Positions 9,321 through 46,890 of a stretch of 64,000 nucleotides of DNA are shown here, in pieces; position 1 is the stretch's first letter, and every line of letters starts with the position of its first letter. The DNA is from Candidatus Hatepunaea meridiana (GTDB lineage: Bacteria; Electryoneota; AABM5-125-24; Hatepunaeales; Hatepunaeaceae). The stretch is taken from NCBI GenBank assembly GCA_030765125.1, contig JAVCDD010000015.1, forward strand, positions 2,939 through 66,938. Reading direction: 5' to 3'. Under the pieces are notes generated by a model that was not told where the DNA came from, ran no database searches, and was given only the letters and a program-made list of their open reading frames with translations. Made by a program: the position numbers and the translations under genes.

Positions 9321-9464
9321 GAAGTTCAGAGTTCAACCTTCAGGTTGCTTCCGCGCTGTCAATCCCGCCGCGGTTGACAGAATTGTCAAGAGTGTTGCTG
9401 TCAGGGACGGCGCTCTGACAGCAGACCGAGAAAAACACGCTAAAGCGCGAACTCTAAACTCTGA
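9321..9464. repeat. REP/MITE-like palindromic element (CTGTCA hairpin pair inside AGTTCAGAGTTCA inverted repeats)
   Basis: ctgtcaatcccgccgcggttgacag and ctgtcagggacggcgctctgacag hairpins are flanked by gaagttcagagttcaacc / gaactctaaactctgaa. The same families recur at five or more other loci. Confidence 0.6.
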
Positions 9465-12404: not shown

Positions 12405-12563
12405 AGGATATTTATGTTTATAATCATTGTATCGCTTGACTTCTCTGTTTGAATATAGTAAAATTATAGGTTTAATCCAAAGAATAAAAGACCACGCATT
12501 CCCGAAGGGAATGAATATGAATAGCGGTGGGTGAAACCCACCGAATTAAATTGCAGACCCTTA

Positions 12564-12806
12564 GTGAAATATGGGGACAGTATACCTATTTTTATGAGTA
12601 GTTTTAGAAAGACCAACAGTATTTAGTGTCTGAACGAAAACCCTCATTTTTCTGAATATTAACCCTCTTTTGTCATTCCCGCGAAGGCGGGAATCCAGGA
12701 GAAACAATAAGTTATCTGGATTCCCGCCTTCGCGGGAATGACAAAAGAAGGGTTTTCGGTCAGACACTATTTAGAAAAATAGGTATACTGTTCCCATATT
12801 TCACTG
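12564..12806. mobile_element. MITE-like nested palindrome; inner 94-bp element has 38-bp TIRs AACCCTCTTTTGTCATTCCCGCGAAGGCGGGAATCCAG
   Basis: Near-perfect inverted repeats at 12661..12754. Outer inverted repeats AAATATGGGGACAGTATACCTATTTT lie at 12567 and 12781. The same TIR family occurs at 23071..23283 and 46596..46697. ORF 12561..12767 inside it is spurious. Confidence 0.6.
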
Positions 12807-16705: not shown

Positions 16706-16918
16706 AAATGTTGTAATGTTGAGATGTTGTAATGTTGTGATTTCAAATTACAATCTAACATTTCCCAGTTCGTAATTTCCTCATTCCCAACTTGATTGGG
16801 AATCCAGTAAGCCCTTGAATTCTCTGGATTCCCAATCAAGTTGGGAATGAGGAAAAAACTGTAAAGTGGAAATGTTAATCACAACATTACAACATTACAA
16901 CATCACAACATCAAAGAG
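16706..16918. repeat. long imperfect palindrome: (TGTTGTAA/TGTTGAGA)n arms enclosing a 75-bp MITE-B with TIRs CTCATTCCCAACTTGATTGGGAATCCAG
   Basis: Left arm atgttgtaatgttgagatgttgtaatgttgtgat; right arm atcacaacattacaacattacaacatcacaacatc; inner inverted repeat at 16778..16852. The same octamer repeats occur at 1111..1136, 40278..40314 and 42978..42998. Confidence 0.6.
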
Positions 16919-17654: not shown

Positions 17655-17725
17655 CCGCTGTCAACCCGCCGTGGTTGACAGCATAACCGGGAGCATTGCC
17701 GTCAGGGACGGCGCCCTGACAGCAG
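17655..17725. repeat. CTGTCA-hairpin REP-like element
   Basis: ctgtcaacccgccgtggttgacag ... cgtcagggacggcgccctgacag between convergent genes. Confidence 0.55.
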
Positions 17726-17821
17726 GTTGAATTTTCATGTTGCGTTGTGCAATCTGTTGAATGAATATTCCGGACTTGATTCGGAATCCAGTCTTTCTCA
17801 CTTTCTCACTTGCCTACTTGC

Positions 17822-19573
17822 TCACTTCAACAATACCATCCGACTGACATTTCTGTATTGAACATTGTTATCATTCTTAGCAATAAACCTGTAGAAATAT
17901 ACTCCCGAAGAGACGGGGTTTCCTGCTTGGTTCATACCAAACCAGATCGCGCTATGATTGCCAGGCGTTTGTCGTTTATTAATCAGTTCTGTTATGAGAC
18001 GACCGGCGACATCATAGATGCTGATACAAACATCTGCCTCAAATGGGAGCGAGTAGCCGATCTCGGTTGATGAATTGAAAGGATTAGGATAGATACCCAT
18101 TATAGCAAATTCCATTGGCAGAGCTTCGTCGGACAATTCAACGCCTAACGCCGTGCCAATTAACTGGATTTCGAGTTCACCCTCGTCTCTATCATTGGAC
18201 TCGATTAGAAGAACGGCTTCATATTCGCCTTCATCCGGGGGATAGAAATAAATCATCAAGGTATGCGATGAATCGGGGGGGAGTTCAAGGTGATTGTCCT
18301 GGTCGCCTAAATCGAAAGGTGCATCGTCAGGCATTATCCTTAACCAAGTGATATCGAGTGGTTCCAGACCGACGTTGCTGATTTCCAATTCCGCTTCCGA
18401 AATATAATCCATCTGAACATCATTGAATTCAACTGATTCCGGTTCCACAAAGATATTGCATTGAGGAAAAAAGAAAGGTCCAATGTCGGCTGTAGTGCTG
18501 TCAGGGTCGGGATCGCCGGTCGGATCACCTGCGTCTATGCAGGGAGAGTCTTCGGTGGGAAAATAGCTTTCCGGGAAATCACCTTCCATTGCCAGCTCGG
18601 GATCCATAAACAGATTGCCGAAAACATCTGTTGAATCGCCGTTGACATTAACCCGGTCAAGGACTCCGAACTCATCTAATTCTAAATCTTCGGAAAGATT
18701 TAGATCGGCATTTTCGCGTCGATTGAAAAATAGATTATTCTTAATTTCAGGCATAGCAAAATCCTGATTAAAATCACCTTCTATCACCGTAATCATAGAT
18801 CCCTCACCCATAAAGATATTGTTGGTAATCTGACAGGAATCACAAACAGTTATAGCAGTCCCTCGATTGGGTAGATAGAAGAGACAGTTTGAAATAGAAG
18901 TAATAGAAGAACACTCTCCTGTAATTACGATACCCCCACCGTTAGCCATTTCAAAAACACATTGTGAAATTATAGAAACATCAGGTGATCTTGTTTCAAT
19001 GATTATGTCAAGCTCTATCCTAATTCTGAATCTACATTTGTACATCTCGTATCCATAATAGCTGTGTATTACTTGTCCTTCTCCTTGAAAAGAGCAATTC
19101 CTGAAAACCGGTTTATGGTCGTTTGATCCAACTAATATTAAGTTATTAAGTTCAGGCCAAAATTGGGTATAGCGTCTCCAATTTCTGAATTGGCAGTATG
19201 TAAACAGCACATCCTGTATTTCAACCTCATTCCAGGTAGTGTCCATGAAGGTAATGCCGCCCCAATTCCTTTCTCCTGCTTTATCAAAAGTAATGGAATC
19301 ATCCTCAGTCCCTTCAGCGATCAGCACACCCCAACAACCGATCCCGCCACTAGCAGGGAAGAGTACTGTAATTCCGGCTTCGATGATTAAAGTATCACCT
19401 CTCTCTATTCCAAATCCTCGATCCCCATCAAGATCACATATATAAGGACTTCCTTCTTGTGTCAACCGTCCGCTGATCCAACCGCCGATATGAGTCTCAG
19501 CGCCAGCCAAACTATAGAGTAACAGGGCTGAAAAGAATAAGAATAGTATTTTGTTTTTCATAATTGTATCCAT
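17822..19573 (-). CDS. T9SS cargo protein: signal peptide + right-handed beta-helix + Ig-like (choice-of-anchor-D-like) domain + T9SS C-terminal sorting domain
   Basis: 583 aa. Signal peptide, beta-helix N-cap (DTLIIEAGITVLF), and C-terminus GIYPNPFNSSTEIGYSLPFEADV...SGVYFYRFIAKNDNNVQYRNVSRMVLLK (T9SS CTD, TIGR04183-like). Confidence 0.75.
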   Translation of the reverse strand: MDTIMKNKILFLFFSALLLYSLAGAETHIGGWISGRLTQEGSPYICDLDGDRGFGIERGDTLIIEAGITVLFPASGGIGCWGVLIAEGTEDDSITFDKAGERNWGGITFMDTTWNEVEIQDVLFTYCQFRNWRRYTQFWPELNNLILVGSNDHKPVFRNCSFQGEGQVIHSYYGYEMYKCRFRIRIELDIIIETRSPDVSIISQCVFEMANGGGIVITGECSSITSISNCLFYLPNRGTAITVCDSCQITNNIFMGEGSMITVIEGDFNQDFAMPEIKNNLFFNRRENADLNLSEDLELDEFGVLDRVNVNGDSTDVFGNLFMDPELAMEGDFPESYFPTEDSPCIDAGDPTGDPDPDSTTADIGPFFFPQCNIFVEPESVEFNDVQMDYISEAELEISNVGLEPLDITWLRIMPDDAPFDLGDQDNHLELPPDSSHTLMIYFYPPDEGEYEAVLLIESNDRDEGELEIQLIGTALGVELSDEALPMEFAIMGIYPNPFNSSTEIGYSLPFEADVCISIYDVAGRLITELINKRQTPGNHSAIWFGMNQAGNPVSSGVYFYRFIAKNDNNVQYRNVSRMVLLK

Positions 19574-19738
19574 AAGATTGAGATAGGTGGACAGTAGTGA
19601 TACTGTCCACCTATCTCACTTTTACCTTTTGTCATTCCGGTTCCCCTTTTGTCATTCCGGACTTGATCCGGAATCCAGCCTTCCTTTTCGGTGCACTTTT
19701 CTTACATGCTTACTTGCTCACGTGCTTACTTTCTTACC

Positions 19739-21394
19739 TCACTTCAACAATACCATTCGGTGAATATTCCTATACTGGACATTGTTATCATTCTTAGCAA
19801 TAAACCTGTAGAAATATACTCCCGAAGAGACGGGGTTTCCTGCTTGGTTCATACCAAACCAGATTGCGCTATGATTACCAGGTGTTTGTCGGTTATTAAT
19901 CAGTTCAGTTATGAGACAACCGGAAACATCATAGATGCTGATGGAGACATCTGCCTCAAATGGGAGCGAGTAGCCGATCTCGGTTGATGAATTGAAAGGA
20001 TTCGGATAGATACCCATTGCTGCAAATTCCGTAGGCAGAGCTTCGTCGGACAAACCAACGCCCAATGCTGTGCCGACTAACGGGATTTCGAGTATATCTT
20101 CATCGCGGTCGTTGGATTCGATGAGCAGGCTGGCTTCATATCTTTGCTCTACAAGGGGTGCGAAACTGATAGTGACGACGCGGGATGAATCCGGTGAAAG
20201 CTCAAACTCCTGCTCTAAATCATTGATGCTGAACGGCATATTAACCGGATGAATCGTCCAGCTCTCAATCTGGAGCGGCAGCACACCGATATTCATTATT
20301 TCCAATTCCAATTCTACTATCTCATCAATCTGAACACCAATAAATTCAACGGTATCCGGTTCAACATCGATATTGCATTGCGGGTAGAAGAATGCGCCGA
20401 TGTCGGCACGTGTGCCGTCAGGGTCGGGGTCTGATTCGGGATCACCGGCATCGATGCAAGGGGAGTCGGAGGTTAAATAGTAAGAATCGGGGTAGATCCA
20501 AACGCTGTCTATCGGTCCGACCTGTAGCGGGTCTTGAAACAGGTTGCCGTACCTGTCCGTCGAATCGCCGTTGGCGTTGACCCGGTCGAGGATGCCGATG
20601 CCCTCAATATCAACGTTCTCGAATTCCTGATCATTGAACATGAAACAGTTATACTCCACATTATCATCGATTCCGGATAGTGCGATCCTATGACACACTA
20701 AGATATTGTTAAAAACCGAAGTCTCGTTATAAGCGTACAAAGCGCCTGACCAATTATTGCATATTTCACCGCGGAAAACACGCATACTACCGTAAATGAC
20801 GCATCGCTGTATTAAGCTGAAACCACCACGTAACCTCTCCCTGACAGGTAGCCCAGAGTAGGTGAAATAACAATCGGTAACAAACACATTTGAATTACGA
20901 CTTGTTCTTAGGCCGATCGAGGAAGTTACAAAAGTGCAATGAGAAAGAGTTGCGGTTAATTCTTCCCCGCCAAAAATCGAGACGGAACCTATATCAAGTT
21001 CCATATCGCATCCTTTAAGCCTGAATTCACAGAAAGACGCTCTGAAATCACTGTCCCCCTCTATCGAGATATATGACCAGCCATATCTATTATCTATATC
21101 CCTGAAGAATATGGAGTCATCTGCCGTCCCCTCCGTTATGAGCTTCGCACCTTCAACTACAAGTTCATGAGAAGACTCGAAAAGCACTTCAACGCCCGGT
21201 TCAATGATCAGAGTATCATTCTCCGCGATCCAAATAGCACGTTCCCTACCCGTAAGTATATATGGACTTCCATCGGTTGACCATATACCGGAAACCTCTC
21301 CTTCCACCCAGGTCGTGTCCGCAAATGAATTGACTAACGATAAGGGCGCAAGAACCAAAACAAAAAAGAATAATCGTTTCATGAACCACCTCAT
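19739..21394 (-). CDS. T9SS cargo protein paralog (beta-helix + conserved Ig-like module + T9SS CTD)
   Basis: 551 aa. Shares the module NRVNANGDSTD...DSPCIDAGDPESDPDPDG...ELELEIMNIGVLPL...SNDRDEDILEIPLVGTALGVGLSDEALPTEF with the two downstream paralogs. CTD is nucleotide-identical to that of 17822..19573. Confidence 0.75.
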   Translation of the reverse strand: MRWFMKRLFFFVLVLAPLSLVNSFADTTWVEGEVSGIWSTDGSPYILTGRERAIWIAENDTLIIEPGVEVLFESSHELVVEGAKLITEGTADDSIFFRDIDNRYGWSYISIEGDSDFRASFCEFRLKGCDMELDIGSVSIFGGEELTATLSHCTFVTSSIGLRTSRNSNVFVTDCYFTYSGLPVRERLRGGFSLIQRCVIYGSMRVFRGEICNNWSGALYAYNETSVFNNILVCHRIALSGIDDNVEYNCFMFNDQEFENVDIEGIGILDRVNANGDSTDRYGNLFQDPLQVGPIDSVWIYPDSYYLTSDSPCIDAGDPESDPDPDGTRADIGAFFYPQCNIDVEPDTVEFIGVQIDEIVELELEIMNIGVLPLQIESWTIHPVNMPFSINDLEQEFELSPDSSRVVTISFAPLVEQRYEASLLIESNDRDEDILEIPLVGTALGVGLSDEALPTEFAAMGIYPNPFNSSTEIGYSLPFEADVSISIYDVSGCLITELINNRQTPGNHSAIWFGMNQAGNPVSSGVYFYRFIAKNDNNVQYRNIHRMVLLK

Positions 21395-23031
21395 TTCAAA
21401 ACCGACATCTTTCTGGTCGCGTTGTAAACGGTCCCATGCTCCGTTACAGCCTCGATCTCATAGAAATATATTCCGGTAGGAACCGTTCGACCATTCGATG
21501 AAGTTCCGTTCCATGCAGCAGAGTGCCAACCGGCATTACGTAAACCTTCGTTCAACCGGCAGATCAATCTGCCCTCTATATCGAAGATGTCAATTCTTAC
21601 CCGTGACGGAGAATTGAGCGAATAAGGGATGTTTGTGGAAGTATTGAAGGGGTTGGGGTAGATGTCCGCTACAGCAAATTCAGTTGGCAGATCCGTATCG
21701 GACAAACCAACACCCAATGCCGTGCCGACTAACGGGATTTCGAGTATATCTTCGTCGCGGTCATTGGATTCGATGAGCAGGCTGGCTTCATATCTTTGCT
21801 CTTCAAGGGGTGCGAAACTGATAGTGACGACGCGGGATGAATCCGGTGAAAGCTCAAACTCCTGCTCTAAATCATTAATGCGGAACGGCATATTAACCGG
21901 ATGAATCGTCCAGCTATCAATCAGAAGCGGCAGCACACCGATATTCATTATTTCCAATTCTAATTCCGCTCTCTCATCTGGCTGAATATTTATAAATTCA
22001 ATGGTATCAGGTTCAACGTTGATGTTACATTGCGGGTAGAAGAACGCGCCGATGTCAGGGAAGGTGCCGTCAGGGTCGGGGTCATCTTCCGGGTTGCCGG
22101 CGTCGATGCAGGGGGAATCGTCTTGAAGGAAATGCTGGTCGGGGAAGTCGTCTCCTCCAACAAGCTGAGGGTCGAGTATCACATTGCCGAATCTGTCGGT
22201 GGAATCGCCGTTGGCGTTGACGCGGTTGAGGACGCCGACTTCTTCGATATCTTCCGAGGTTATTTCTGCATAATTATAAAAGCAATTGTTTGAAACGTTA
22301 ACAGCGTTACCGACAATCGCCGTCCCGCCGCCGCGGCTTAAAAAGATCGAATTAGTAACGCTGCCGCCTCCGTCATTGCATAGTACAAAACAAGTATTAT
22401 AAAATATGCAGTGATCAGCAATTCCCTTAACAGTTGCATGACCATAGGAGACCCTCTTAAATATACATCGTCTTACGATTGTACTGTCGTCTCTTTGTGG
22501 TATAATAGCCCTCCCATATACAATTCCGTCAAATAAACAGTCTTCAATGATGTAATCTGAACCACTTACATCTATACCTTTAGCAAGGCTATTGAATGTT
22601 GAATGCCTGACTTCAAGTGATGAAGCACCACTAATAGCTTCTGATGTACAAAAATAACCAAATACTGCGTAAAAATGACAATAATCGAATCTACCAGTTG
22701 AATTCTCACCTCTGAAATTTATACCACCCCAGCTTTCATGATCATCATAATTAAGAGGAATGAACAATATTGAATCGTCTATTGTTCCTTCGGCTGTTAT
22801 TGTTAGGTTATCACCTGCTATGTTAACATGAAAGCGAAATAAAACAATTACACCGGGTTCAATAATTAAATCGGCATCATCACTAAAACGCACATTTGTA
22901 TCAACTATATAAGGACTCCCCTCAATATCCCATACACCACCTTCCATTTGACCTCCGACGTGAGTTTCAGAGAACAAAAGAGGAGATAAAAGGAATTGAA
23001 GCAACAAAATAGTAAAGATTTTCTTAATCAT
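21391..23031 (-). CDS. T9SS cargo protein paralog (beta-helix + conserved Ig-like module + divergent T9SS CTD)
   Basis: 546 aa; 4-nt overlap with the upstream paralog; CTD variant IYPNPFNTSTNIPYSL...TRKMSVLK. Confidence 0.75.
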   Translation of the reverse strand: MIKKIFTILLLQFLLSPLLFSETHVGGQMEGGVWDIEGSPYIVDTNVRFSDDADLIIEPGVIVLFRFHVNIAGDNLTITAEGTIDDSILFIPLNYDDHESWGGINFRGENSTGRFDYCHFYAVFGYFCTSEAISGASSLEVRHSTFNSLAKGIDVSGSDYIIEDCLFDGIVYGRAIIPQRDDSTIVRRCIFKRVSYGHATVKGIADHCIFYNTCFVLCNDGGGSVTNSIFLSRGGGTAIVGNAVNVSNNCFYNYAEITSEDIEEVGVLNRVNANGDSTDRFGNVILDPQLVGGDDFPDQHFLQDDSPCIDAGNPEDDPDPDGTFPDIGAFFYPQCNINVEPDTIEFINIQPDERAELELEIMNIGVLPLLIDSWTIHPVNMPFRINDLEQEFELSPDSSRVVTISFAPLEEQRYEASLLIESNDRDEDILEIPLVGTALGVGLSDTDLPTEFAVADIYPNPFNTSTNIPYSLNSPSRVRIDIFDIEGRLICRLNEGLRNAGWHSAAWNGTSSNGRTVPTGIYFYEIEAVTEHGTVYNATRKMSVLK

Positions 23032-23070
23032 TTTTCTCTCATTTTAATGATTCTGCTGAAAAACATCCTA

Positions 23071-23283
23071 TTTTGTCATTCCCGCGAAACAGACAGTCCG
23101 AGAATGCTGAAATCCCGCTGGCAGACGCCCTCGTCTGCCAGTTAAGTCCTTGTTTTTTCGTCAGACGAGGGCGTCTGACGACGGGTGAATATCTATTCTC
23201 GGACAGTCTGGAAAGCTGGAATCCAGATGGAGTGTTAAATACTTGAAAACTCTGGATTCCCGCTTTCGCGGGAATGACAAATA
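23071..23283. mobile_element. MITE-A copy (TTTTGTCATTCCCGCGAA... TIRs) interrupted by a nested ~125-bp hairpin element
   Basis: The left TIR is truncated after ttttgtcattcccgcgaaa. It is followed by an insert with its own inverted repeats cagacagtccgagaa/ttctcggacagtctg, carrying GTCAGACG hairpins homologous to 1895..1992. The insert is followed by the MITE-A centre and an intact right TIR. Confidence 0.55.
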
Positions 23284-23319
23284 AATGATCGCAGGCAGAG
23301 ACACCTACGCTACTATCAA

Positions 23320-25158
23320 TTATCGGATTAAAACCATCCGGTTTACAATATTTTCAGTATTGCCCGCATCATATTCAATGGAAATATTGTATAAATAGAT
23401 ACCTGAAGCAACTTCCAAACCACTTCTGTCAAGACCGTTCCAGGTAACACGGTTAGCGCCTGCTTGCTGCATACCGGAAACAAGTTCCTTAACGAGCCTG
23501 CCTTTGATGTCGTAGATCCTTAAGCTGACTTCACCGGATTGCGGAATGCTATAGCTGATCTCGGTTGATGAGTTGAAAGGATTCGGATAGATACCCATTG
23601 CTGCAAATTCCGTAGGCAGAGCTTCGTCGGACAAACCAACGCCCAATGCTGTGCCGACTAACGGGATTTCGAGTATATTCTCGTCGCGATCATTGGATTC
23701 GATGAGCAGGCTGGCTTCATATCTTTGCTCTTCAAGGGGTGCGAAACTGATAGTGACGACGCGGGATGAATCCGGTGAAAGCTCAAACTCCTGCTCTAAA
23801 TCATTGATACGGAACGGTATATTATCCGGGTGAATCGTCCAGCTCTCAATCAGAAGCGGCAGCACACCGATATTCATTATTTCCAGTTCCAATTCCGCTC
23901 TCTCATCAGGTTGAATATTTACAAATTCAACGGTATCGGGTTCAACGTTGATGTTACATTGCGGGTAGAAGAATGCGCCGATGTCGGGGAAGGTGCCATC
24001 AGGGTCAGGGTCTGACTCGGGGTCGCCAGCGTCGATGCAAGGCGAGTCATCGGACAGGTGGAAGTCGTCGTTATCATGATCGATGAATTGAGGATCTTCA
24101 TGAATTACATGATCACTGTACTCCTCAAGCCATTCGCCTTCAATATCGCAATAGGATAAGATCACCTCGTCAACATCTTCATAGAAGTGAACTTGAGGTC
24201 CTTCATAGGCACGGTTTCCCCAGAATATACAGTTCGATACAATACTCCATTCATTAGCCACAACACAGATACCACCACCAATTTCACTTTCGTTAAATAC
24301 GATAGTATTTGAATGGAATCGAAAAGGTCTCGCAGAATGATCAAAATATATAGCTCCACCCGCGTTTCCAGCACTATTATATGAAAAAACGTTATATTGC
24401 ACTTCTGCTAAGGTGAGATGACCCAAGCTTAATGCACCGCCATTGTAACCTGCTTGGTTACCGATAAACATATTTCCTGTTATGGTAAATTCCCCGAAAG
24501 GTGATTCCCAAGTCCCGATTGCTCCACCAGACCCTAAAGCGGAATTATCAATAAACAGGTTCTCAACAACCCTGATATCTCCGGAAAACCTAATACTCAA
24601 TGCTCCACCGCTGACTCCACAATTCTCTATAAATAAGTTTCTTTCAATAGTTACGGGATGGCAAAAATATGTGCATATAGCTCCACCCCACCAGTAACAT
24701 TGATTGTCTGAAAAAGTGGAGTTACTGATATTCAATTCGGCTTCCTCACAATAAAGAGCACTGCCTCGGACGTAGTTATCTTCATCACCTACGATGCAAT
24801 TACTGACTATACAATATCTTAATGTTACCACAGCACCACTATCAGCCCTGATACCACACCAGAATTCCTCGTCTTCATCGGAATGAAAAACTATGGAGTC
24901 ATCTACCGCTCCCTCTGCAAGAAGTTCACCATAAACCAACAGCGAATAGGGACCATTGAAATTTATTATTACACCGGGTTCAATCATCAGTGTATCTTCA
25001 GCGGGGATAAAGATGGTGTCCAGGACGACTACAGGCGAATCGTCGATAGTCCATGTACCACTTACTTCGTCTTCAACTTCAATTGCGTATAGATTATTTA
25101 ATGCAAGTATGCAGAATATTGACAAGGCGACGCAAATAAGTATTTGTTTTTTGTTCAT
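23320..25158 (-). CDS. T9SS cargo protein paralog with pbH1-type parallel beta-helix repeats, conserved Ig-like module and T9SS CTD
   Basis: 612 aa with glycine-rich pbH1-like repeats (SGGALSIRFSGDIRVVENLFIDNSALGSGGAIGT), the conserved module shared with 19739.. and 21391.., and CTD ...GIYLYNISIEYDAGNTENIVNRMVLIR. Confidence 0.75.
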   Translation of the reverse strand: MNKKQILICVALSIFCILALNNLYAIEVEDEVSGTWTIDDSPVVVLDTIFIPAEDTLMIEPGVIINFNGPYSLLVYGELLAEGAVDDSIVFHSDEDEEFWCGIRADSGAVVTLRYCIVSNCIVGDEDNYVRGSALYCEEAELNISNSTFSDNQCYWWGGAICTYFCHPVTIERNLFIENCGVSGGALSIRFSGDIRVVENLFIDNSALGSGGAIGTWESPFGEFTITGNMFIGNQAGYNGGALSLGHLTLAEVQYNVFSYNSAGNAGGAIYFDHSARPFRFHSNTIVFNESEIGGGICVVANEWSIVSNCIFWGNRAYEGPQVHFYEDVDEVILSYCDIEGEWLEEYSDHVIHEDPQFIDHDNDDFHLSDDSPCIDAGDPESDPDPDGTFPDIGAFFYPQCNINVEPDTVEFVNIQPDERAELELEIMNIGVLPLLIESWTIHPDNIPFRINDLEQEFELSPDSSRVVTISFAPLEEQRYEASLLIESNDRDENILEIPLVGTALGVGLSDEALPTEFAAMGIYPNPFNSSTEISYSIPQSGEVSLRIYDIKGRLVKELVSGMQQAGANRVTWNGLDRSGLEVASGIYLYNISIEYDAGNTENIVNRMVLIR

Positions 25159-25995: not shown

Positions 25996-26059
25996 AATAT
26001 AGAACGCTTCGTTGTGCGGAATACGCCGGCGGAGCTTTTTTATTATAAGGGAAGAAACA

Positions 26060-29000
26060 ATGGTTCACCGATTTGCTTTAATTCTCTCGCTGATGGTTTT
26101 CTGCTTAACCATCACAACCGTATCAGCCCAGGAAATCATCGAAGTAGGAGACTTTGATACACCAGGGCTGGCTAAGGACGTTGTCGTCGCCGGTAACCAC
26201 GCATACATTGCGGATTACGGCAGCGGTCTGCGTATCATCAACATATCCGATCCGGAAAACCCTGATGAAGTCGGGGCTTTTGACACTCAGGGGAATGCTT
26301 GGGGCGTCGTCGTTTCCGGTGATTTCGCTTACATAGCTGACTACGCAAGCGGATTGCGTATAGTCAATATTTCCGATCCGGAAAATACCAATGAGGTTGG
26401 TAATTACGACACGCCAAGTCACGCCTTTAGCGTCGTCGTTATAAACAGCCTTGCTTATATCGCAGATGGCGAGGAGTCCGGATTACTCATAATAAACGTC
26501 GCCGATCCGGCAAATCCCGACATAGTTGCAAGCTTTGAGACTGAGGGAACCGCCTTCGACGTTTCCGTTGTCGGTAATCTTGCATACATCGCAGACGCTG
26601 GTTTTCTGCGCATTATTGATGTGTCTGATTTAGACAATATGGTCGAAGTCGGAACTATTGAAACTCGGGGTACCGCCAAAGGCGTAGCTGTCGCCGGTGA
26701 TTATGCTTACATCGCTGATGGCGAAAGCGGGTTGCGTATTATCAACGTATCCGATCCGGAGAACCCGGAAGAAGTGGGGGACTTCAATACACCCGACGAT
26801 GCCAGCGATGTTACCGTTGTCGGCAGCTATGCCTACGTAGCTGACGGTGAAAGCGGTCTTTACATAATTGATGTTTCTAATCCGGAGGAACCGGAAGAAG
26901 CAGGTTCTTTCGATACCCCGAACGAGGCGATAGGCGTCACCGGAAATGATGAATATATATACATAGCAGATAACACAAGCGGTCTGCTTATTCTAAACGT
27001 ATCCGAATTTCACATTCCTATTATTGCCGTTGCCCCTGAAGCCCTTGACTTTGAAGAGGTCGAGTTAAACCAGAGTGCGGAATTGACTTTGACCATCAAT
27101 AACGAGGGTGGTAATGATCTGACCATTTCGGATGTCTCATTAACTGGAGACCACTTCAGCGTTGACTTTGAAGATGAAGTTGTCGTTGAACGAGATGAAG
27201 ACTATGAATTAACGGTAACCTTTGCGCCTGAGGAAATCGGTGAACTACGGGATACTTTAATAATTACATCCAACGATCCTGATAACGGTGAAGTAACCAT
27301 ATTCCTGAGTGGTGTTGGCGTAGGACCGGTTATTTCCATTGATCCCGAGACGATGGTCTTCGGTCAGGTGTTAGTCGGTGAAGCTGGTGAGATGATTATT
27401 ACAATCAGCGACTCTGGAAACACTAATCTAATTGTGTCTGATATTTTAGTTGAAGGCGATTATTTCTACGTTGATTTCGAGCAGGAGTTAGTAATTGAAC
27501 CGAACGGCGCCGCTGAAGTGTCGGTCAGCTTTGCACCTGAAGAATTCCGCGATTGCCAGGGAACACTGACTATTACATCCAACGATCCTAATCGGGATGA
27601 GATAGTTATCAACTTAACTGGTTCTGGGGTTGCAGTAGCCATCCGCGAGGTCGGCGCTTTCAATACGCCGGGCGAGGCGCGGGGCATTGCGGTAGTTGGT
27701 GATATTGCTTACATTGCAGATGGTCAAACCGGTTTGATTATTTTCGATATTTCCAATCCTGCCGAACCGGATTCTCTTGGAGCCTGTGATACGCCTGGTG
27801 ATGCATACTACGTCATCGTCGTAGGTGAATATGCTTACATCGCCGATCAAACAGGCGGTTTAAGGGTAATTAATGTTTCCGATCCAACTGAACCCGAAGA
27901 AGTCGGATACTACGATACTGCCGGTGAAGCCAGAGGCGTTGCTGTGCTTGGGAACTATGCTTATATCGCAGACGGTGATCCAGGTCTCATAGCAATAAAC
28001 ATCTCTAATCCTGAAGATCCGGAGCAGGTAGGAGCATTCAATTCTCCCGGAACGGCAAGGGGTGTCACAATCTCAGGGGAATACGCTTATGTATCGGATG
28101 GAGGAAGCGGTCTTCGTATCGTAGACTTGTTTGATCCACGCAGCCCGGAAGAAATTGGCTCTTTCGATACACCGGGGTGGGCGTTGAGTTCCTTTATCGC
28201 TGGAGATTACGCTTATGTTGCCGACTGGCGCAATGGTATGCAGATCATTGATATATCCGATTTGGAAAATCCTGATTTGGTGAGCTCTTTTGATACACCG
28301 GGTGAAGCTTTGAACCTTGCAATTGTTGGTAATTACGTTTATATTGCTGATTTAGGTAGTGGTCTGCGAATGATCGACGTATCCAACCGTCGTCAACCTG
28401 AAGAAGCCGGATACTTTGATACACCCGGTAACGCAAGAGGCGTTGCCGTAATTGGTGACTATGCTTACGTAGCTGATGGACCGGGTGGATTGCGTATCCT
28501 CGATGTATCTAACATCGGCGAACCCTTACCGTTTATCTCAGTAGCGCCTTTAGAATTGGACTTCGGTGAGGTGATGCTGAATGAAGGTACGCAGTTGGCT
28601 ATAACAATCAGCAATGTTGGCGGTGCTGATCTGACCATTTCAGAAGTTGTCAGCAATTTTGGATGCTTTACAACCGATTTCGAGGATGAGATTGTCCTTG
28701 AACCAGATGAAAGTGAAAATGTAATGGTTACGTTTACACCGGATCATCACGGACTATTTGAAGGAACTATAACCATTACTTCAAATGATCCATTTACCGA
28801 AGAAGTAACTGTTACTCTGCGTGGAAACGGAATTATCGGCGTTATCCATCATATTGGTTTCTTTGATACGGAAGGGCATGCACTGGATGTGGTAATTGAA
28901 AATAATTATGCCTATGTGGCTGACCGGCGAGCTGGAATGAGCATAATCAGTATTGCCGATCCGTTTAATCCGAGTGAAGTTGGATACATCGATTCACCGG

Positions 29001-31234
29001 GTGACGCACGCGGTGTTGCCGTCCAGGGTGATTATGCTTATATAGCGGATTGGAATCAAGGATTGCGTATTATACTCGTCAGCCGTCCAACCCTTCCGCG
29101 CGAAGCTGGATTCTTTGTTACCGATGGAAATGCTCGAGGTGTCGCCGTAGCCGGGAACTATGCTTATGTTGCAATGCAGGAGAGCGGTCTTAGTATCATT
29201 GACATATCCGATCCCGCAGAACCCAGCGAAGTTGGCTCTTTCGATACACCGGGAGCTGCCTATGCCGTTGCCGTTGTTGAAGACTATGCTTATGTCGCTG
29301 ACGGAACAGGTGGACTTAGGGTGATAAATGTTTCAGATCCGCAAGAGCCTCGGGAAGTCGGCGCTTATGATACTGAGGGTCAATCTTATGGCATTACAGT
29401 TGATGGTGAGTTAGCATACGTTGCTGATGGTGACGGCGGTTTACGCATCATTAACATATCCGATCCGGAACATCCTGAAGAAGTGGGAGCATATCAAGAA
29501 TTGGAGCAATCCTGGGACGTTGCTGTTGAAGACGGCTTTGCATACATAGCGGACTATGAAAACGGTCTGCGCTTAATAGACGTTTCCGATCCCGAAAATC
29601 CCAACGAGGTCGGAGACTATGACACTCCTGGACTAGCTTACGGAGTCGCTGCCGCAAACGAGCATTACGCTTACGTAGCAGATTATGATAGCGGATTACG
29701 TATCCTTGACGTATCTGAAGTCATCGGTTGGGAAGCGCAAGATCCTGCTATTATCGTTTCACCGGATGAGTTAATCTTCGATCAGGTTGAGATCGGTCTG
29801 AATCGTAATCTCAACATTACTATTCGCAATGAAGGCAATGCTGATTTGATTGTATCCAATATTTATGTTACTGACAATGCTTTCAGTGTAGATTTCCCTG
29901 ATCAGCTCGCTATAGAGCCCGGCAACAGCGAAGAGATTGTGGTTACTTTTGCACCTGACAGATTCAGCGAATCCGAAGGAGACCTGATTATCGAATCCAA
30001 CGATCCGAATGGCGACGTATCAATCTCTTTGATCGGTTCAGGTGTTTACATTGTGATTAGCGAGATGGGGTATTTCGATACTGAAGGAAATGCTAAAGAC
30101 GTCGCAATCGTGGGTGATTACGCCTATGTAGCTGATGGTGAAGCGGGAATAAGCATAATAGATATTACCGATCTGCAAAACCCCAATGAAGTAGGAACAT
30201 TAGATACACCGGACGAAGCTTTTGCAATTGAGGTAGTTGGTGATTATGCTTATGTGGCAGACAAAGAGAGCGGGTTGCGCGTCATTAACATCTCAAATCC
30301 TGAGCAACCGGAAGAGGTTGGTTCTTATGACACACCGGGAATGGCAAGAGAAGTTGTTGTTGTCGGCAACTATGCTTACGTTGGCGATGGCGCTGATGGT
30401 TTCCGAGTGATTGACATATCAACTCCTGACGACCCACGTGGTACAGGCATCTATAATACACCTGACGAAGCCTGGGGAATCACCATTATCGGTGAATACG
30501 CATACGTAGCGACAAGGGAAAGAGGGTTGCGTATTCTAAACATCTTCGATCCGCAACGTCCAAATGAGGTTGGATTCTACGATACGCAGAGATACGCCCG
30601 CGACGTCAGCGTGTCCGGTGACTATGCTTATGTGGCAGACGGCACCGGCGGACTGGTCGTGTTAAATATTTCTGATCCGGAGCATCCTCGTAAAGAGGGC
30701 GAATTATTAACTATGGACGAAGCTCGCAGTATCACCATCCGTGGAAATTTTGCATTCGTCGCCGATAAGGAAGGTGGATTGCGGATTATTGATATCTCGC
30801 ATCCGGATGATCCGGAAGAGATCGGATTCTATAATACTTCAGACGAGTCTTTCGGAGTTACTGTTGTGGATGACAGATATGCCTACGTAGCGGACGGAGA
30901 GAACGGACTGCGAATACTTGACGTTTCAAACATCCACGGCGTAAACGATCAACAGGATAATCCTATTCCAACGGAATTCAATTTATCGGCAGCCTATCCG
31001 AATCCGTTCAACTCGACTATGAATATATCGTATGACCTGCCCGTCCTGACAAATATTTCATTGCAGATATTCGATGTCAACGGTAGAGTTACAGCAACGC
31101 TTTATTCAGGTGCAAGAGCGCCGGGGCGTTATCATTCAATTTGGAACGGACGCAATTCACCATCAGGCATTTACTTGATTAGGTTGAATTCATCCGATTT
31201 CAATGCTGTACGTAAAGTAGTACTAACGAAATGA
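26060..31234 (+). CDS. giant secreted LVIVD-repeat protein: four ~7-bladed LVIVD beta-propellers separated by choice-of-anchor-D Ig-like domains, with T9SS C-terminal sorting domain
   Basis: 1724 aa from the ATG at 26060 (track ORF begins at an upstream TTG). Signal peptide MVHRFALILSLMVFCLTITTVSAQ. Contains >25 copies of a ~40-aa unit G.YAY[IV]AD...GL[RV]I[IV][DN][IV]SDP.NP.EVG.[YF]DTPG.A.GV.V. Ig-like segments such as ELTLTINNEGGNDLTISDVSL...ITSNDPDNGEV appear four times. C-terminus AAYPNPFNSTMNISYDL...IRLNSSDFNAVRKVVLTK. Confidence 0.8.
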   Translation: MVHRFALILSLMVFCLTITTVSAQEIIEVGDFDTPGLAKDVVVAGNHAYIADYGSGLRIINISDPENPDEVGAFDTQGNAWGVVVSGDFAYIADYASGLRIVNISDPENTNEVGNYDTPSHAFSVVVINSLAYIADGEESGLLIINVADPANPDIVASFETEGTAFDVSVVGNLAYIADAGFLRIIDVSDLDNMVEVGTIETRGTAKGVAVAGDYAYIADGESGLRIINVSDPENPEEVGDFNTPDDASDVTVVGSYAYVADGESGLYIIDVSNPEEPEEAGSFDTPNEAIGVTGNDEYIYIADNTSGLLILNVSEFHIPIIAVAPEALDFEEVELNQSAELTLTINNEGGNDLTISDVSLTGDHFSVDFEDEVVVERDEDYELTVTFAPEEIGELRDTLIITSNDPDNGEVTIFLSGVGVGPVISIDPETMVFGQVLVGEAGEMIITISDSGNTNLIVSDILVEGDYFYVDFEQELVIEPNGAAEVSVSFAPEEFRDCQGTLTITSNDPNRDEIVINLTGSGVAVAIREVGAFNTPGEARGIAVVGDIAYIADGQTGLIIFDISNPAEPDSLGACDTPGDAYYVIVVGEYAYIADQTGGLRVINVSDPTEPEEVGYYDTAGEARGVAVLGNYAYIADGDPGLIAINISNPEDPEQVGAFNSPGTARGVTISGEYAYVSDGGSGLRIVDLFDPRSPEEIGSFDTPGWALSSFIAGDYAYVADWRNGMQIIDISDLENPDLVSSFDTPGEALNLAIVGNYVYIADLGSGLRMIDVSNRRQPEEAGYFDTPGNARGVAVIGDYAYVADGPGGLRILDVSNIGEPLPFISVAPLELDFGEVMLNEGTQLAITISNVGGADLTISEVVSNFGCFTTDFEDEIVLEPDESENVMVTFTPDHHGLFEGTITITSNDPFTEEVTVTLRGNGIIGVIHHIGFFDTEGHALDVVIENNYAYVADRRAGMSIISIADPFNPSEVGYIDSPGDARGVAVQGDYAYIADWNQGLRIILVSRPTLPREAGFFVTDGNARGVAVAGNYAYVAMQESGLSIIDISDPAEPSEVGSFDTPGAAYAVAVVEDYAYVADGTGGLRVINVSDPQEPREVGAYDTEGQSYGITVDGELAYVADGDGGLRIINISDPEHPEEVGAYQELEQSWDVAVEDGFAYIADYENGLRLIDVSDPENPNEVGDYDTPGLAYGVAAANEHYAYVADYDSGLRILDVSEVIGWEAQDPAIIVSPDELIFDQVEIGLNRNLNITIRNEGNADLIVSNIYVTDNAFSVDFPDQLAIEPGNSEEIVVTFAPDRFSESEGDLIIESNDPNGDVSISLIGSGVYIVISEMGYFDTEGNAKDVAIVGDYAYVADGEAGISIIDITDLQNPNEVGTLDTPDEAFAIEVVGDYAYVADKESGLRVINISNPEQPEEVGSYDTPGMAREVVVVGNYAYVGDGADGFRVIDISTPDDPRGTGIYNTPDEAWGITIIGEYAYVATRERGLRILNIFDPQRPNEVGFYDTQRYARDVSVSGDYAYVADGTGGLVVLNISDPEHPRKEGELLTMDEARSITIRGNFAFVADKEGGLRIIDISHPDDPEEIGFYNTSDESFGVTVVDDRYAYVADGENGLRILDVSNIHGVNDQQDNPIPTEFNLSAAYPNPFNSTMNISYDLPVLTNISLQIFDVNGRVTATLYSGARAPGRYHSIWNGRNSPSGIYLIRLNSSDFNAVRKVVLTK

Positions 31235-31257: not shown

Positions 31258-31416
31258 ACCGTGGTTGACAGCCTGTGAACAGAGCCCGTTCAGAAAAGAA
31301 ATGCTGAACGGGCTCTGTTATGTAAAACGGAGAGAGCGGATATTCCTGTCCACCACATTATTCATCTTCAAACCAACCCAGCTGTCAGGGCGCCGTTCCT
31401 GACAGCAATACAACAA
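31258..31416. repeat. cluster of REP-like hairpins (CTGTCA family plus a perfect 16-bp stem)
   Basis: ctgtcatcccaccgtggttgacag; aacagagcccgttcag...ctgaacgggctctgtt; ctgtcagggcgccgttcctgacag. Confidence 0.55.
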
Positions 31417-31670: not shown

Positions 31671-31777
31671 CAGTAGCGTAGACGTACCCGCCTGTGGAAA
31701 CACTTCTAGCAGGCAGAAGGGAGGGGGGGGCCGCTCCTAATTATTTACTTTCGCAGGCAGGGACGTCTACGCTACTG
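31671..31777. repeat. inverted repeat CAGTAGCGTAGACGT...ACGTCTACGCTACTG enclosing a G8 homopolymer tract
   Basis: cagtagcgtagacgtacccgcctg ... caggcagggacgtctacgctactg with gggagGGGGGGGGcc at 31723..31730, 30 bp upstream of the OMP gene start. A related half-site lies at ~23291. Confidence 0.5.
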
Positions 31778-33099: not shown

Positions 33100-33129
33100 C
33101 GTCTTATCTTGTTCAACTCAATAAAATAT

Positions 33130-33230
33130 ACAAAATCAGTAGAAGCGACACTCTTGTCGCTTGAATGTTAGATTTACCACAACTTTGTAAGCGACGCAAG
33201 CGACAAGAGTGTCGCTTCTACTGATTTTGT
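33130..33230. mobile_element. MITE-C (33-bp TIRs ACAAAATCAGTAGAAGCGACACTCTTGTCGCTT)
   Basis: Perfect terminal inverted repeats flank a 35-bp centre; a second copy with the same TIR core lies at 40149..40240. Confidence 0.55.
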
Positions 33231-33277
33231 AACTCTTTAATAATTGAAGAATAAACGCTATTTTTAAAGGGAGTATC

Positions 33278-40148: not shown

Positions 40149-40240
40149 GAAAAATAGTAGAAGCGACACTCTTGTCGCTTTGGCAATGTCTCTGAAACTC
40201 GAAAGCCCAAGCGACAAGAGTGTCGCTTCTACTATTTTTC
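40149..40240. mobile_element. MITE-C second copy
   Basis: TIR gaaaaatagtagaagcgacactcttgtcgctt ... aagcgacaagagtgtcgcttctactatttttc, followed by the (CAACATYA)n tract at 40278..40314. Confidence 0.55.
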
Positions 40241-40318
40241 AAGGGGTGGCACAGGCAATAAATAGCCTGCGCCACCCAATCACAACATCTCAACATCACA
40301 ACATTACAACATCAAGAA

Positions 40319-41503
40319 TCAAAACTGCCCACTATGCCAGATCAACTGCTTCTTAACCCTTTCGAAAGTATGCGTCGTGTGGTCAGCGGGGATATCTGCG
40401 CTTTCAGAGTTCGGGATGCCGTCGTAATATAGGCTGACATCCGGTGACATACTTGCTGCGGCAAGCGCACCGGCAAAAACCTGATGTGCTCCATATAACC
40501 CGAGATCATCGTCTAACCCGGCGTCCAGGTATACTTTAACTCCAACCAGAGACGTTAATTGTCCACCAGAGAAACGACTCACTATATCGCGTGCCATCCA
40601 ACGGTTCCAGACCGGCATATATAACGTGCCATCTATATTAATCGGCAGGTCAACCCCTACTGCAGCAATAGAAGTCGGCACAGGCGCCGCAGGATTTGTC
40701 GGGCTGAATGCGGCTGCCATAGCAAACGCCATCGAAGTCAGACGCCTATCAGGAGCAGGATAAAACATTGCACGGAAAGCAGCAGTATCACCAACGCCCG
40801 GATTTGCTTCAAGGACGGAATCATAGTTGGTTTCTGCCAAAATTGACGGCAGCAGTGCCTCTATGCCCTTGTAGGTTTCATCATTGTGAGGCGGCATTGT
40901 CTTGGTTCCCCAGAAGGCAATCGGAGCAGCGATAACAGAAATACTGCCGAAAACACCTGTTGAGTCCAGTGGAACACTAAGCGCTCCGTATCCACCCATC
41001 GAATGACCACCAATACCACGGCTTGCCGGGTCTTCGATAGTGTTGTAGTTAAGGTCTACATCGGAAACGATGGTCAGGATATGATTCGCACTCTGACCGA
41101 CATAGGGATGAGGACTGTTGGTATAAAACGACCCACCAAAGTTGTTATGTCCTGATGGGAAAACCAGGATCATAGGTTCTATGTCGCCGCGCGAGAGCAG
41201 CCAGTCGGCAGCGTCAACGGCGCTGAAAAGCGCAACAAAGTAGTTCTCATCGGCACCGAAGCCATTGAGTAAATACAGCGTCGGATAACCCTGGGCGCGA
41301 TTCACATCGTAACCGGGTGGTGTATAGACATAGTAGCAGCTCGAAGTCGTATCACCGATAGTCGCCATAAATGGGTCTACAACAGGTGTAATGGAACCTT
41401 TTGTAACCGTTGGCGCCGTCGGAGCAATCTCTTCGGAAGCGCAACCGATGAACAGACCGACGATTAATCCGACGGTCAGGATGTATAGTAGAATTTTGTG
41501 CAT
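40319..41503 (-). CDS. alpha/beta-hydrolase esterase lipoprotein (putative esterase family)
   Basis: 394 aa with lipoprotein signal LIVGLFIGCAS and nucleophile elbow GGHSMGGYGA. Confidence 0.65.
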   Translation of the reverse strand: MHKILLYILTVGLIVGLFIGCASEEIAPTAPTVTKGSITPVVDPFMATIGDTTSSCYYVYTPPGYDVNRAQGYPTLYLLNGFGADENYFVALFSAVDAADWLLSRGDIEPMILVFPSGHNNFGGSFYTNSPHPYVGQSANHILTIVSDVDLNYNTIEDPASRGIGGHSMGGYGALSVPLDSTGVFGSISVIAAPIAFWGTKTMPPHNDETYKGIEALLPSILAETNYDSVLEANPGVGDTAAFRAMFYPAPDRRLTSMAFAMAAAFSPTNPAAPVPTSIAAVGVDLPINIDGTLYMPVWNRWMARDIVSRFSGGQLTSLVGVKVYLDAGLDDDLGLYGAHQVFAGALAAASMSPDVSLYYDGIPNSESADIPADHTTHTFERVKKQLIWHSGQF

Positions 41504-42939: not shown

Positions 42940-43224
42940 TGGACTCCTCCATTTATAAAAATAGATTTTATAATTTCGAGATGTTGCGATGTTGTGATTT
43001 ATTTTTTTCTTTCACGTTTTGTATTTGATTAAGTAAGGTAGGTAATCAGGTTCCTATTAGTATAGTGATTAATTGACGGGAATTCAAGTATATTTTAAAA
43101 TCAAGCGTCTAACAGAGAAATATATTAACTATTATGCATCAGTTATTGCTAATATTACGTAATCACTATATATTACATAAATGGAGAAAACACTGACACT
43201 TACTAAATCGGAGTACAAACCCGC

Positions 43225-44349: not shown

Positions 44350-44477
44350 GGGGAAATAAGGGGACAATATACCTGTTTTATAAATATTCTTTAAAATAAC
44401 GATAGTCCATAGAAAAGTAGGTATACTGTCCCCTTATTTCCTCATTCGATGTTTAAACTACTTTACGGGAACACCAT

Positions 44478-46499: not shown

Positions 46500-46890
46500 C
46501 AGGTAGCGTAGGGCGGGATCTTATCCCGCCGAACTGCTTTTCTTGATAATGAAGATGTCCGGCAATACTTACTATTAATGATCCTGTTGAAATACTTCCC
46601 ATTTTGTCATTCCCGCGAAGGCGGGAATCCAGTTTAAAGAGTTTAAATACTTGAAAACTCTGGATTCCCGCCTTCGCGGGAATGACAAAGTGGGAAGCAA
46701 ATTCTGTAATAATTGACTTTTTCAACAGAATCATTAATCCGACCGTTTAATAGTTGACGTTGCGTTGCTGTCAGGTTACGCTTCGCTTGAAACCTGACGG
46801 GAACGTGTATATTATTAAGCGGTCTGGTTAATAATTTGAGTGATGTTAGACTTACGGCGGGTTAAGAACCCGCCCTACGTTTCAGGATTA
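46500..46890. repeat. composite nested palindromic region inside the efflux operon, containing a MITE-A copy at 46596..46697
   Basis: Outer inverted repeats cgtagggcgggatcttatcccgcc / ggcgggttaagaacccgccctacg; middle inverted repeats ttaatgatcctgttgaaa / tttttcaacagaatcattaa; inner MITE-A TIRs cttcccattttgtcattcccgcgaaggcgggaatccag. ORF 46423..46734 is spurious. Confidence 0.55.

Follow-up and report, generated by a model that had tools for sequence, protein, structure and literature searches.

Inverted dimers of an NTS/SRM-type hairpin in nested palindromes and a short mobile element of Candidatus Hatepunaea meridiana

Introduction

The 64-kb stretch of DNA analysed here, which we call the window, belongs to the metagenome-assembled genome (MAG) of Candidatus Hatepunaea meridiana, a member of Candidatus Electryoneota (FCB group) from the Antarctic Ace Lake. 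It holds a short hairpin repeated in inverted pairs, and these pairs raise a simple question: are they the ends of a transposable element private to this genome, or copies of something more widely shared? A first-pass annotation took the former view and described three copies of a miniature transposable element with inverted repeats (a MITE) bounded by 38-bp terminal inverted repeats (TIRs).

Our analysis points to a different answer. We hypothesize that the repeated unit is the NTS/SRM hairpin, that it is arranged here as inverted dimers, and that these dimers have spread partly as the core of a true MITE and partly by landing at the apex of other palindromes. We put the probability of this explanation, taken as a whole, at roughly 80%.

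The repeated hairpin matches the NTS/SRM motif

Five copies of a 30-mer, TTTGTCATTCCCGCGAAGGCGGGAATCCAG, are present in the window, compared with none in the dinucleotide shuffles of the window against which their significance was judged. The copies pair as inverted repeats at ~12.7 kb (copy 1), 23.1-23.3 kb (copy 2) and 46.6 kb (copy 3), and related hairpins lie at 16.8, 17.8 and 19.65 kb (Table 1). Each hairpin begins with a TGTC tag (5/5 copies), followed by the 8-bp stem ATTCCCGC, a 4-nt loop that is either GAAG or GAAA, the returning strand GCGGGAAT and a CCAG tail. The inverted arms measure 36 nt in copy 1 (12663-12698 / 12716-12751) and 38 nt in copy 3 (46595-46632 / 46660-46697), with 97% complementarity in both. 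A single arm is predicted to fold alone, with an 8-bp stem and a 4-nt loop (-8.9 kcal/mol, z -4.9), as the first-pass annotation had noticed in calling each TIR a stem-loop in itself, and the dimers are predicted to fold as one long hairpin (z -14 to -15.5).

The closest published counterpart is the 28-nt NTS, CGTCATTCCCGCGMAVGCGGGAATCYRG, which contains dRS3 and has been generalised as the SRM motif, according to the available text of Chenal et al. (2025, Nat Commun 16:2388; PMC11893778). The window hairpin, TGTCATTCCCGCGAAGGCGGGAATCCAG, differs from this sequence by one mismatch, at position 1, in its five copies. The SRM expression, HGTCWYN(0-2)YYVSBRHN(0-5)WNVSBRGN(0-2)RNCYNB, matches exactly the five intact copies in the window, against a mean of 0.2 matches in shuffled sequence; in the same scan it matched neither the family B dimer nor the 19650 hairpin, both described below.

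The hairpin also has the features of a known class of repetitive extragenic palindromes (REPs). As the available text of Di Nocera, De Gregorio and Rocco (2013; PMC3733652) has it, CGTC-1 REPs carry a CGTC tag with TGTC and CCTC variants, an 8-bp stem starting from AT, a 4-nt loop and a CCA tail, occur mostly as inverted homodimers, and include Neisseria dRS3 and Rickettsia RPE-6. The hairpin of Hatepunaea has an unpaired tag, an AT-initial 8-bp stem, a 4-nt loop and a CCA tail, and all three CGTC-1 loci in the window (3/3) are inverted homodimers. Judged by its sequence, the conserved "TIR" is the NTS/SRM hairpin, which is the same as the CGTC-1 REP and holds the Neisseria dRS3 core.

Distribution and association with GIY-YIG nucleases

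Two scans bear on how widely the hairpin occurs outside this genome. The 24-nt hairpin core occurs in at least 120 stretches of IMG/VR, on contigs of 41-71% GC, and the flanks of these matches diverge at once beyond GTC-ATTCCCGCGAAGGCGGGAAT-CCAG. The exact 30-mer, sought in one genome per GTDB species, occurs in at least 97 stretches. Among the matches listed are Zixibacteria, Ignavibacteriota, Patescibacteria, Planctomycetota, Nitrospirae, Chloroflexi, Cyanobacteria, Elusimicrobia, Myxococcota, Campylobacterota, Desulfobacterota and Alpha-, Beta- and Gammaproteobacteria, and their similarity to the window is confined to the hairpin dimer. The 38-bp arm is thus no private TIR, since its core is pan-bacterial and the same exact 30-mer recurs in many phyla.

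In other genomes the hairpin keeps close company with a nuclease gene. The 217 motif-selected loci were searched with a GIY-YIG profile (hidden Markov model on six-frame translations), and all ten small GIY-YIG genes recovered (10/10) sit 0-117 bp from a hairpin and carry PF01541 (E 3e-17). Reciprocally, manual inspection of 31 IMG/VR loci picked by protein alone revealed a tagged hairpin on at least one side of the gene in every case (31/31) and on both sides in about 27, and across these loci the hairpin variant co-varies with the lineage of the GIY-YIG gene. Chromosomal GIY-YIG genes are likewise bracketed by hairpins in Nitrosomonas, a Planctomycetota MAG and Aurantiacibacter.

This association is an independent confirmation of Chenal et al. 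(2025) and not a new result. The available text of that paper reports an NTS-ssnA-NTS layout across bacteria, in which ssnA encodes a GIY-YIG protein of the cd10448 type; SsnA binds the hairpin solely as single-stranded DNA (ssDNA), with its cut falling a few nucleotides to the 5' side, binding and cleavage have been demonstrated for Neisseria and Wolbachia homologs, and loop extensions are tolerated (PMC11893778). The 2013 survey, in its available text, had recorded CGTC repeats in five phyla with no associated enzyme or dedicated transposase (PMC3733652).

Further observations concern individual carriers of the hairpin. In Aurantiacibacter aquimixticola (RAHX01000001.1, 2044924-2049235; locus L261) the sequences CGTCATTCCCGCGAAGGCGGGAATCCAG / CTGGATTCCCGCCTGCGCGGGAATGACG bracket an ssn-type GIY-YIG gene that has a phage portal gene on one side and a large-terminase gene on the other, and this looks like an insertion into a prophage or the head module of a gene transfer agent-like element. 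Many viral contigs hold several NTS copies (for example IMG/VR loci L072, L080 and L039); all those of L072 and most of those of L080 point the same way, and at both loci they often lie a few bases upstream of the starts of open reading frames (ORFs). Such contigs suggest that phages carry or exploit the hairpin.

A MITE with the hairpin dimer as its core

The first-pass annotation was right in part to speak of a MITE. A 27-mer specific to the spacer that copies 2 and 3 have in common was used to scan metagenome contigs. It retrieved 16 of them, each from one of the two Ace Lake metagenomes in which genes of the window are also present. When the copies are aligned, they share a 155-bp unit of the form TGATYCTGTTGAAATACTTCCCATTT-[NTS]-spacer-[NTS]-AAATGGGAGG...TTCAACAGAATCA, with unrelated flanks on either side. 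This short non-coding element has outer TIRs, TGATYCTGTTGAA... / ...TTCAACAGAATCA, and TG...CA ends, and perfect 4-bp direct repeats border six of nine complete copies (TTAA twice, TAAA, TAGA, TAAC and GTGA). Four of the six repeats are non-palindromic, so that the repeats are genuine duplications of the target site and do not simply extend the palindrome, and they indicate that the MITE was moved in trans by a transposase making staggered cuts. The TG...CA ends and the 4-bp duplication resemble what we take to be the ends of IS3-family insertion sequences (ISs). At least 15 distinct loci of the Ace Lake population carry the exact 27-mer, which favours a dispersed family over the local duplication that the annotation had held up as the alternative. 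A single viral-contig match to the outer TIRs was rejected as a chance match inside a gene.

Copy 3 is thus a genuine MITE, with TIRs and a 4-bp duplication, but its 38-bp hairpin arm is not the transposon end. The termini and the target duplication sit 26 nt outside the hairpins; in copies 2 and 3 the true unit exceeds the annotated length, and no target duplication is present at the boundaries first drawn. Copies 2 and 3 share the 155-bp unit; copy 1 has neither the MITE termini nor a target duplication.

Copy 2 is a decayed element of the same type, with the spacer segment TAAATACTTGAAAACT in common with copy 3. Its left hairpin was thought to have lost part of its sequence, but it has instead been split exactly in the loop, and reads ATTCCCGC-GAAA-[121 bp, 23090-23210]-GAAA-GCTGGAAT-CCAG, so that each side of the insert bears its own copy of the 4-nt loop. 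The nested insertion that had been reported at ~125 bp is real; it is a 121-bp palindromic element with TIRs of its own, and a paralog of the palindrome at ~1870-2015. From the way the stem is modelled to re-form around the inserted hairpin, the loop-split NTS could still be recognised by Ssn.

How far, then, does the idea of a private MITE survive? On this view a degenerate IS of this genome would have the 38-bp hairpin arms as the TIRs to which its transposase binds. The idea accounts for an inverted-repeat element of less than 300 bp with no coding capacity, several copies and, in copy 3, a target duplication. It does not account for an arm core that is identical across many unrelated phyla while the flanks diverge immediately, for termini and a target duplication that lie outside the hairpins, for hairpins without termini in copy 1, or for the fact that hairpins elsewhere flank a GIY-YIG nuclease gene and not a DDE transposase gene (PMC11893778, available text). 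We consider a private MITE improbable.

A bare dimer at the apex of nested palindromes

Copy 1 lies between divergently transcribed genes. It lacks the outer MITE termini, and its spacer differs from that of copies 2 and 3. The dimer (12663-12751) is predicted to fold at -44.5 kcal/mol (z -14), and it forms the apex of a palindrome of three layers. The interval originally annotated, 12564-12806, corresponds to the outermost of these layers at 12563-12805, and the whole is predicted to form one hairpin of ~240 nt (z -18.4). The outer arms belong to a palindromic family, here called family F, which is also found in the window as an "empty" copy without the NTS dimer. Together with the split loop of copy 2, the empty copy of family F suggests that palindromes have repeatedly landed at the apex or loop of others.

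Copy 3 and the efflux operon

As had been annotated, copy 3 lies between the ATPase and permease genes of a MacB-type efflux operon, inside larger nested palindromes. The spacer between the two genes is 537 bp long, and a pair of GTAG-tagged REPs (GTAGCGTAGGGCGGG...) encloses both the MITE and a further hairpin at ~46770-46810. RNA structure prediction, which the first-pass annotation had proposed as a check, folds the region 46503-46885 as one nested hairpin (Table 1). Two relatives have far shorter orthologous spacers, of 65 bp in the one that is 83% identical and of ~180 bp in the one that is 89% identical, and the bases directly behind the stop codon and those directly ahead of the start codon can still be aligned with those relatives. 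Contigs of other assemblies that bear the ATPase gene stop ~117 bp past it, inside the element.

In the 89%-identical relative (L280/L282, 4667-4850) the spacer is occupied by another inverted hairpin dimer, CTCGTTCCCATGCTCCAGCGTGGGAATG... / ...CATTCCCACGCTGGAGCATGGGAACGAG, which differs from the one here. Palindromic elements may land at this site repeatedly.

The position inside an operon makes it natural to ask whether these are regulatory hairpins of the host (terminators, mRNA stabilisers or protein-binding sites) that are kept by selection and not by mobility. Very stable folds are predicted for both RNA and DNA, the elements occupy intergenic spacers, one of them within an operon, and REPs elsewhere are reported to affect mRNA stability (PMC3733652, background in the available text). 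However, no T-run follows the hairpins 3' and a terminator scan of the window returned no site at them, which speaks against the transcription-terminator role that had been suggested. The target duplications, the unrelated flanks and the absence of the elements from orthologous spacers all indicate insertion, and copy 1 stands between divergently transcribed genes. A regulatory origin therefore has a slim chance in our view, although a regulatory side-effect is compatible with spread of NTS/SRM dimers: as RNA, the hairpins may influence the stability of the transcript or the polarity of the MacB-type operon, and the 537-bp nested-hairpin block may alter the latter in particular.

REPINs and assembly artefacts

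Two inverted REPs joined by a short spacer into a long hairpin are also the architecture of a classical REPIN, which would be mobilised by a REP-associated tyrosine transposase (RAYT) of the IS200/IS605-type Y1 HUH class. GTAG-tagged REPs do occur in the window, so a RAYT may exist in the genome. However, the tag of the hairpins considered here is TGTC/CGTC and not GTAG, and no ORF of the HUH type was found in the window or in ~54 kb of other contigs of the population. The available text of the 2013 survey states that no tyrosine transposase gene is flanked by CGTC repeats (PMC3733652), and the gene that the hairpin does flank in other genomes encodes a GIY-YIG nuclease. We regard RAYT-driven REPINs as highly improbable.

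Finally, a local duplication or fold-back artefact of the MAG can be dismissed with near certainty, even though palindromes and MAG assemblies are artefact-prone and short-read contigs break at copy 3, because two JGI Ace Lake assemblies match the copy 1 locus at 100% identity over 661 bp and an ENA assembly matches it at 99.8%, the 15 or more loci have different flanks, and the motif is widespread in finished genomes.

A model for the spread of the dimers

Outside Hatepunaea the hairpin serves as the ssDNA recognition site of small GIY-YIG Ssn nucleases. The inverted dimers of Hatepunaea, whose tags face outward, can form a pair of Ssn-type hairpins or, alternatively, a single long one, and we see two modes of spread. 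In the first, one lineage of dimers makes up the core of the 155-bp MITE and has been carried in trans by a transposase that cuts with a stagger. In the second, bare dimers such as copy 1, together with other palindromes, are found at the apex or loop of palindromes that were already there, which produces a Russian-doll nesting. The hairpins would be Ssn targets whenever they are single-stranded, be it in replication, transformation, or phage or conjugative entry, and an Ssn encoded elsewhere in the genome or in incoming phage DNA may act on them.

Several points weigh against this model. In an ungapped comparison, the location of NTS dimers inside longer palindromes did not prove general in other taxa, and apex-targeting may be specific to the Hatepunaea lineage. 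The metagenome contigs were placed in Hatepunaea solely by their sample of origin and the repeats they have in common. No autonomous IS with the outer TIRs of the MITE was found in the window, the population contigs or the viral contigs. Neither the 64-kb window nor ~54 kb of further contigs of the Ace Lake population yielded an ssn (GIY-YIG) gene, and as the rest of the MAG lies outside this search, the action of a cognate Ssn here is unproven. Moreover, nothing in our results or in published work shows Ssn itself moving hairpins; Chenal et al. (2025) demonstrated cleavage and an effect on transformation but no transposition, and mobility is a hypothesis in the available text (PMC11893778).

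A clue to past cleavage may come from a second kind of repeat. The 5' half of the hairpin (GTCATTCCCGC) is repeated 17-21 nt upstream (start to start) of ~10% of NTS copies in many phyla, sometimes in tandem. Upstream half-repeats accompany 14/134 genome copies and 23/222 viral copies, versus 1/134 and 9/222 in the downstream same-strand control. We did not find them mentioned in the available text of either PMC11893778 or PMC3733652. The half-repeat may be the footprint of cleavage and repair.

A bolder version of the model would have NTS hairpins multiply as passengers in MITE cores and by apex or loop insertion, in addition to descent as NTS-ssn-NTS units, with the half-repeat as an Ssn repair footprint and NTS/Ssn as an active or recently active ssDNA mobile system and not just a signal for transformation control. 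We offer this version tentatively and think it unlikely as it stands.

For annotation, we suggest that the hairpin be labelled NTS/SRM (CGTC-1 REP) and not as a private TIR, and that ORFs running across it be treated as probably spurious. When ORFs close to the motif were clustered without bias, the result was distorted in just this way, with ORFs that translate the hairpin emerging as the top "protein families". Peptides of this origin contain, for example, ...VIPAKAGIQ..., ...SFPRRRES... or ...WIPAFAGMT.... An ORF of this kind in the window is at 46423-46734 on the minus strand.

Related hairpins and other features of the window

An inverted-repeat survey of the window confirmed the earlier impression of a genome crowded with small palindromic elements, which belong to multiple families. 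The second MITE family that had been annotated at 16778..16852 is real and corresponds to the family B dimer. Its arms of 32 nt are 100% complementary, with a CCTC tag and a 5-nt loop; CGTC families 2-4 have a 5-nt loop, and the stem and loop lengths of family B match those reported for CGTC-2 (PMC3733652, available text). Inverted arrays of an 8-bp unit (16708-16757 / 16862-16911) enclose the dimer. Family B and the 19650 hairpin have the frame ATTCC...GGAAT-CCAG in common with the TGTC hairpins of copies 1-3, but their loop is of 5 nt. Half-sites had been annotated at 17770 and 19650. Both sites exist, but at 19650 the hairpin is complete and has a half-repeat ahead of it, in which the 5' half CCTTTTGTCATTCCGG occurs directly repeated at 19625-19640 and 19645-19660.

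Table 1. Positions in the window of the hairpins, the elements that carry them and related palindromes
Feature	Position	Strand	Basis or remark
30-mer TTTGTCATTCCCGCGAAGGCGGGAATCCAG	12669-12698	+	motif match
30-mer TTTGTCATTCCCGCGAAGGCGGGAATCCAG	12716-12745	-	motif match
30-mer TTTGTCATTCCCGCGAAGGCGGGAATCCAG	23252-23281	-	1 mismatch
30-mer TTTGTCATTCCCGCGAAGGCGGGAATCCAG	46603-46632	+	motif match
30-mer TTTGTCATTCCCGCGAAGGCGGGAATCCAG	46660-46689	-	motif match
NTS/SRM hairpin, copy 1 left, TGTC-ATTCCCGC-GAAG-GCGGGAAT-CCAG	12671..12698	+	exact motif, SRM match, fold
NTS/SRM hairpin, copy 1 right, inverted partner, 17-nt spacer	12716..12743	-	motif, SRM match
Three-layer nested palindrome around copy 1, NTS dimer at apex	12563..12805	.	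inverted repeat, fold
Copy 1 outer arms, family F GAAATATGGGGACAGTATACCTATTTTT	12566-12593 / 12775-12802
Copy 1 middle palindrome layer	~12624-12646 / 12749-12772
Family F "empty" copy, without NTS dimer	44353..44441	.
Copy 2, decayed 155-bp-type MITE	23048..23281	.	alignment, fold
Copy 2 left outer TIR	23048-23064		right outer TIR missing
Copy 2 left NTS, split in loop	23074-23089 + 23211-23226
121-bp palindromic insert in GAAA loop of copy 2 left NTS	23090..23210	.	16-bp TIRs CAGACAGTCCGAGAAT, 1 mismatch
Copy 2 right NTS	23252-23279	-
Copy 3, complete 155-bp MITE, ends TGATCCTGTTGAAATAC...TTCAACAGAATCA, NTS dimer core	46579..46733	.	alignment; fold z -15.5
Copy 3 target duplication TTAA	46575-46578 + 46734-46737
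NTS/SRM hairpin, copy 3 left	46605..46632	+	motif, SRM match
NTS/SRM hairpin, copy 3 right	46660..46687	-	motif, SRM match
Outer nested palindromes in ATPase-permease spacer	46503..46885	.	fold -201.9 kcal/mol, z -18.3
Family B dimer, CCTC-ATTCCCAA-CTTGA-TTGGGAAT-CCAG	16776..16855	.	inverted repeat, fold
Single hairpin TGTC-ATTCCGGA-CTTGA-TCCGGAAT-CCAG	19650-19678	+	feature 19625..19678
Degenerate untagged paralog of 19650 hairpin	17767..17791	+	3' of duplicated T9SS-cargo gene, equivalent position
Half-hairpin repeat, examples	19625-19678; loci L129, L146, L163, L164, L191, L193, L204, L207, L006, L028, L082, others

Arrays of the 8-bp unit (AATCACAACATTACAACATY...) lie at 1102-1147, 16708-16742, 16869-16912, 40270-40323 and 42956-43008. 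Two of them form the inverted arms around the family B dimer, and of these the array at 16869-16912 is just upstream of the start of a HAD gene at 16931; the array at 42956-43008 is just upstream of a minus-strand gene starting at 42939. GTAG-tagged REP families (GTAGAAGCGACACTCTTGTCGCTT, GTAGCGTAGG...) are present at 33109-33251, 40149-40240, 46503-46535/46855-46885, 23283-23315 and 31671-31777. They coexist with the CGTC-type hairpins and also form inverted dimers, and the window holds no RAYT/HUH ORF. Further palindromic families comprise GCTGTCAGGGACGGCGCCCTGACAGC and dimers of CTGTCAGACG-NNNN-CGTCTGACAG, with sites at 9392-9422, 17695-17726, 31378-31411, 1870-2015 and 23090-23210; one member of the CTGTCAGACG-NNNN-CGTCTGACAG family is the insert in the left hairpin loop of copy 2.

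Four tandem paralogous minus-strand genes at 17822-25158 encode C-terminal sorting domains of the type IX secretion system (T9SS), and some of these paralogs have a hairpin just 3' of the stop codon that was duplicated along with the gene. A protein of 1740 aa made of 42-aa (126-nt) repeats is encoded at 26012-31234. At gathering thresholds, no Rfam family was found in the window, and no tRNAs were found there.

Comparison with known systems

The 155-bp element is like MITEs derived from DDE insertion sequences, for example those with IS3-family-like TG...CA ends and duplications of 3-4 bp: it is short, has TIRs, TG...CA ends and 4-bp direct repeats, and is dispersed in at least 15 copies. It differs from them in its core, which is a foreign pan-bacterial hairpin dimer and not IS-derived sequence. 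With REPIN-RAYT systems, reportedly those set out by Bertels and Rainey in 2011, the dimers share the layout of two inverted REPs in a long hairpin and the presumed dependence on a trans-acting enzyme whose gene is flanked by the repeat. They differ in the tag (GTAG versus CGTC) and in the enzyme (a Y1 HUH transposase versus a GIY-YIG nuclease), and REPINs are not known to leave a target duplication whereas the 155-bp element has one.

Most dRS3 copies of Neisseria belong to large clustered arrays, where they alternate with RS repeats and act as sites of phage integration. Between dRS3 and the hairpins of Hatepunaea there is identity of the core ATTCCC-N8-GGGAAT, and several IMG/VR matches lie in Neisseria-like NIME contexts, but the Hatepunaea hairpins are isolated inverted dimers.

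The likeness to published CGTC-1 REPs extends to the nesting, as some dimers lie inside longer palindromes here and, in the available text of the 2013 survey, in H. neapolitanus (PMC3733652). Unlike in that survey, the exact motif is found here in many more phyla, and the link to an enzyme has been published since. Our scans extend the exact motif to Electryoneota and, in other genomes, to MAGs of the Candidate Phyla Radiation (CPR), Cyanobacteria, Chloroflexi and Elusimicrobia; we did not find Electryoneota, CPR, Cyanobacteria, Chloroflexi or Elusimicrobia named as hosts in the available text of PMC11893778, nor did we find MITE carriage with a target duplication described there, and the word "MITE" is absent from its main text.

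Our additions to these systems are modest: a host phylum, the breadth of exact conservation, carriage by a MITE with a target duplication, a loop-split copy and the 5' half-hairpin repeat. The window offers natural cases of a hairpin dimer carried by a bona fide MITE and of a hairpin split in its loop by another palindrome, the second being an arrangement that the published enzyme tolerates in vitro. Like the NTS/SRM of Chenal et al. (2025; PMC11893778, available text), the hairpin of Hatepunaea is oriented, GTC being its 5' tag and CCAG its tail, and brackets ssn-like genes in other genomes; unlike it, the hairpins here are strictly inverted dimers, one lineage of which resides inside a MITE with a target duplication.

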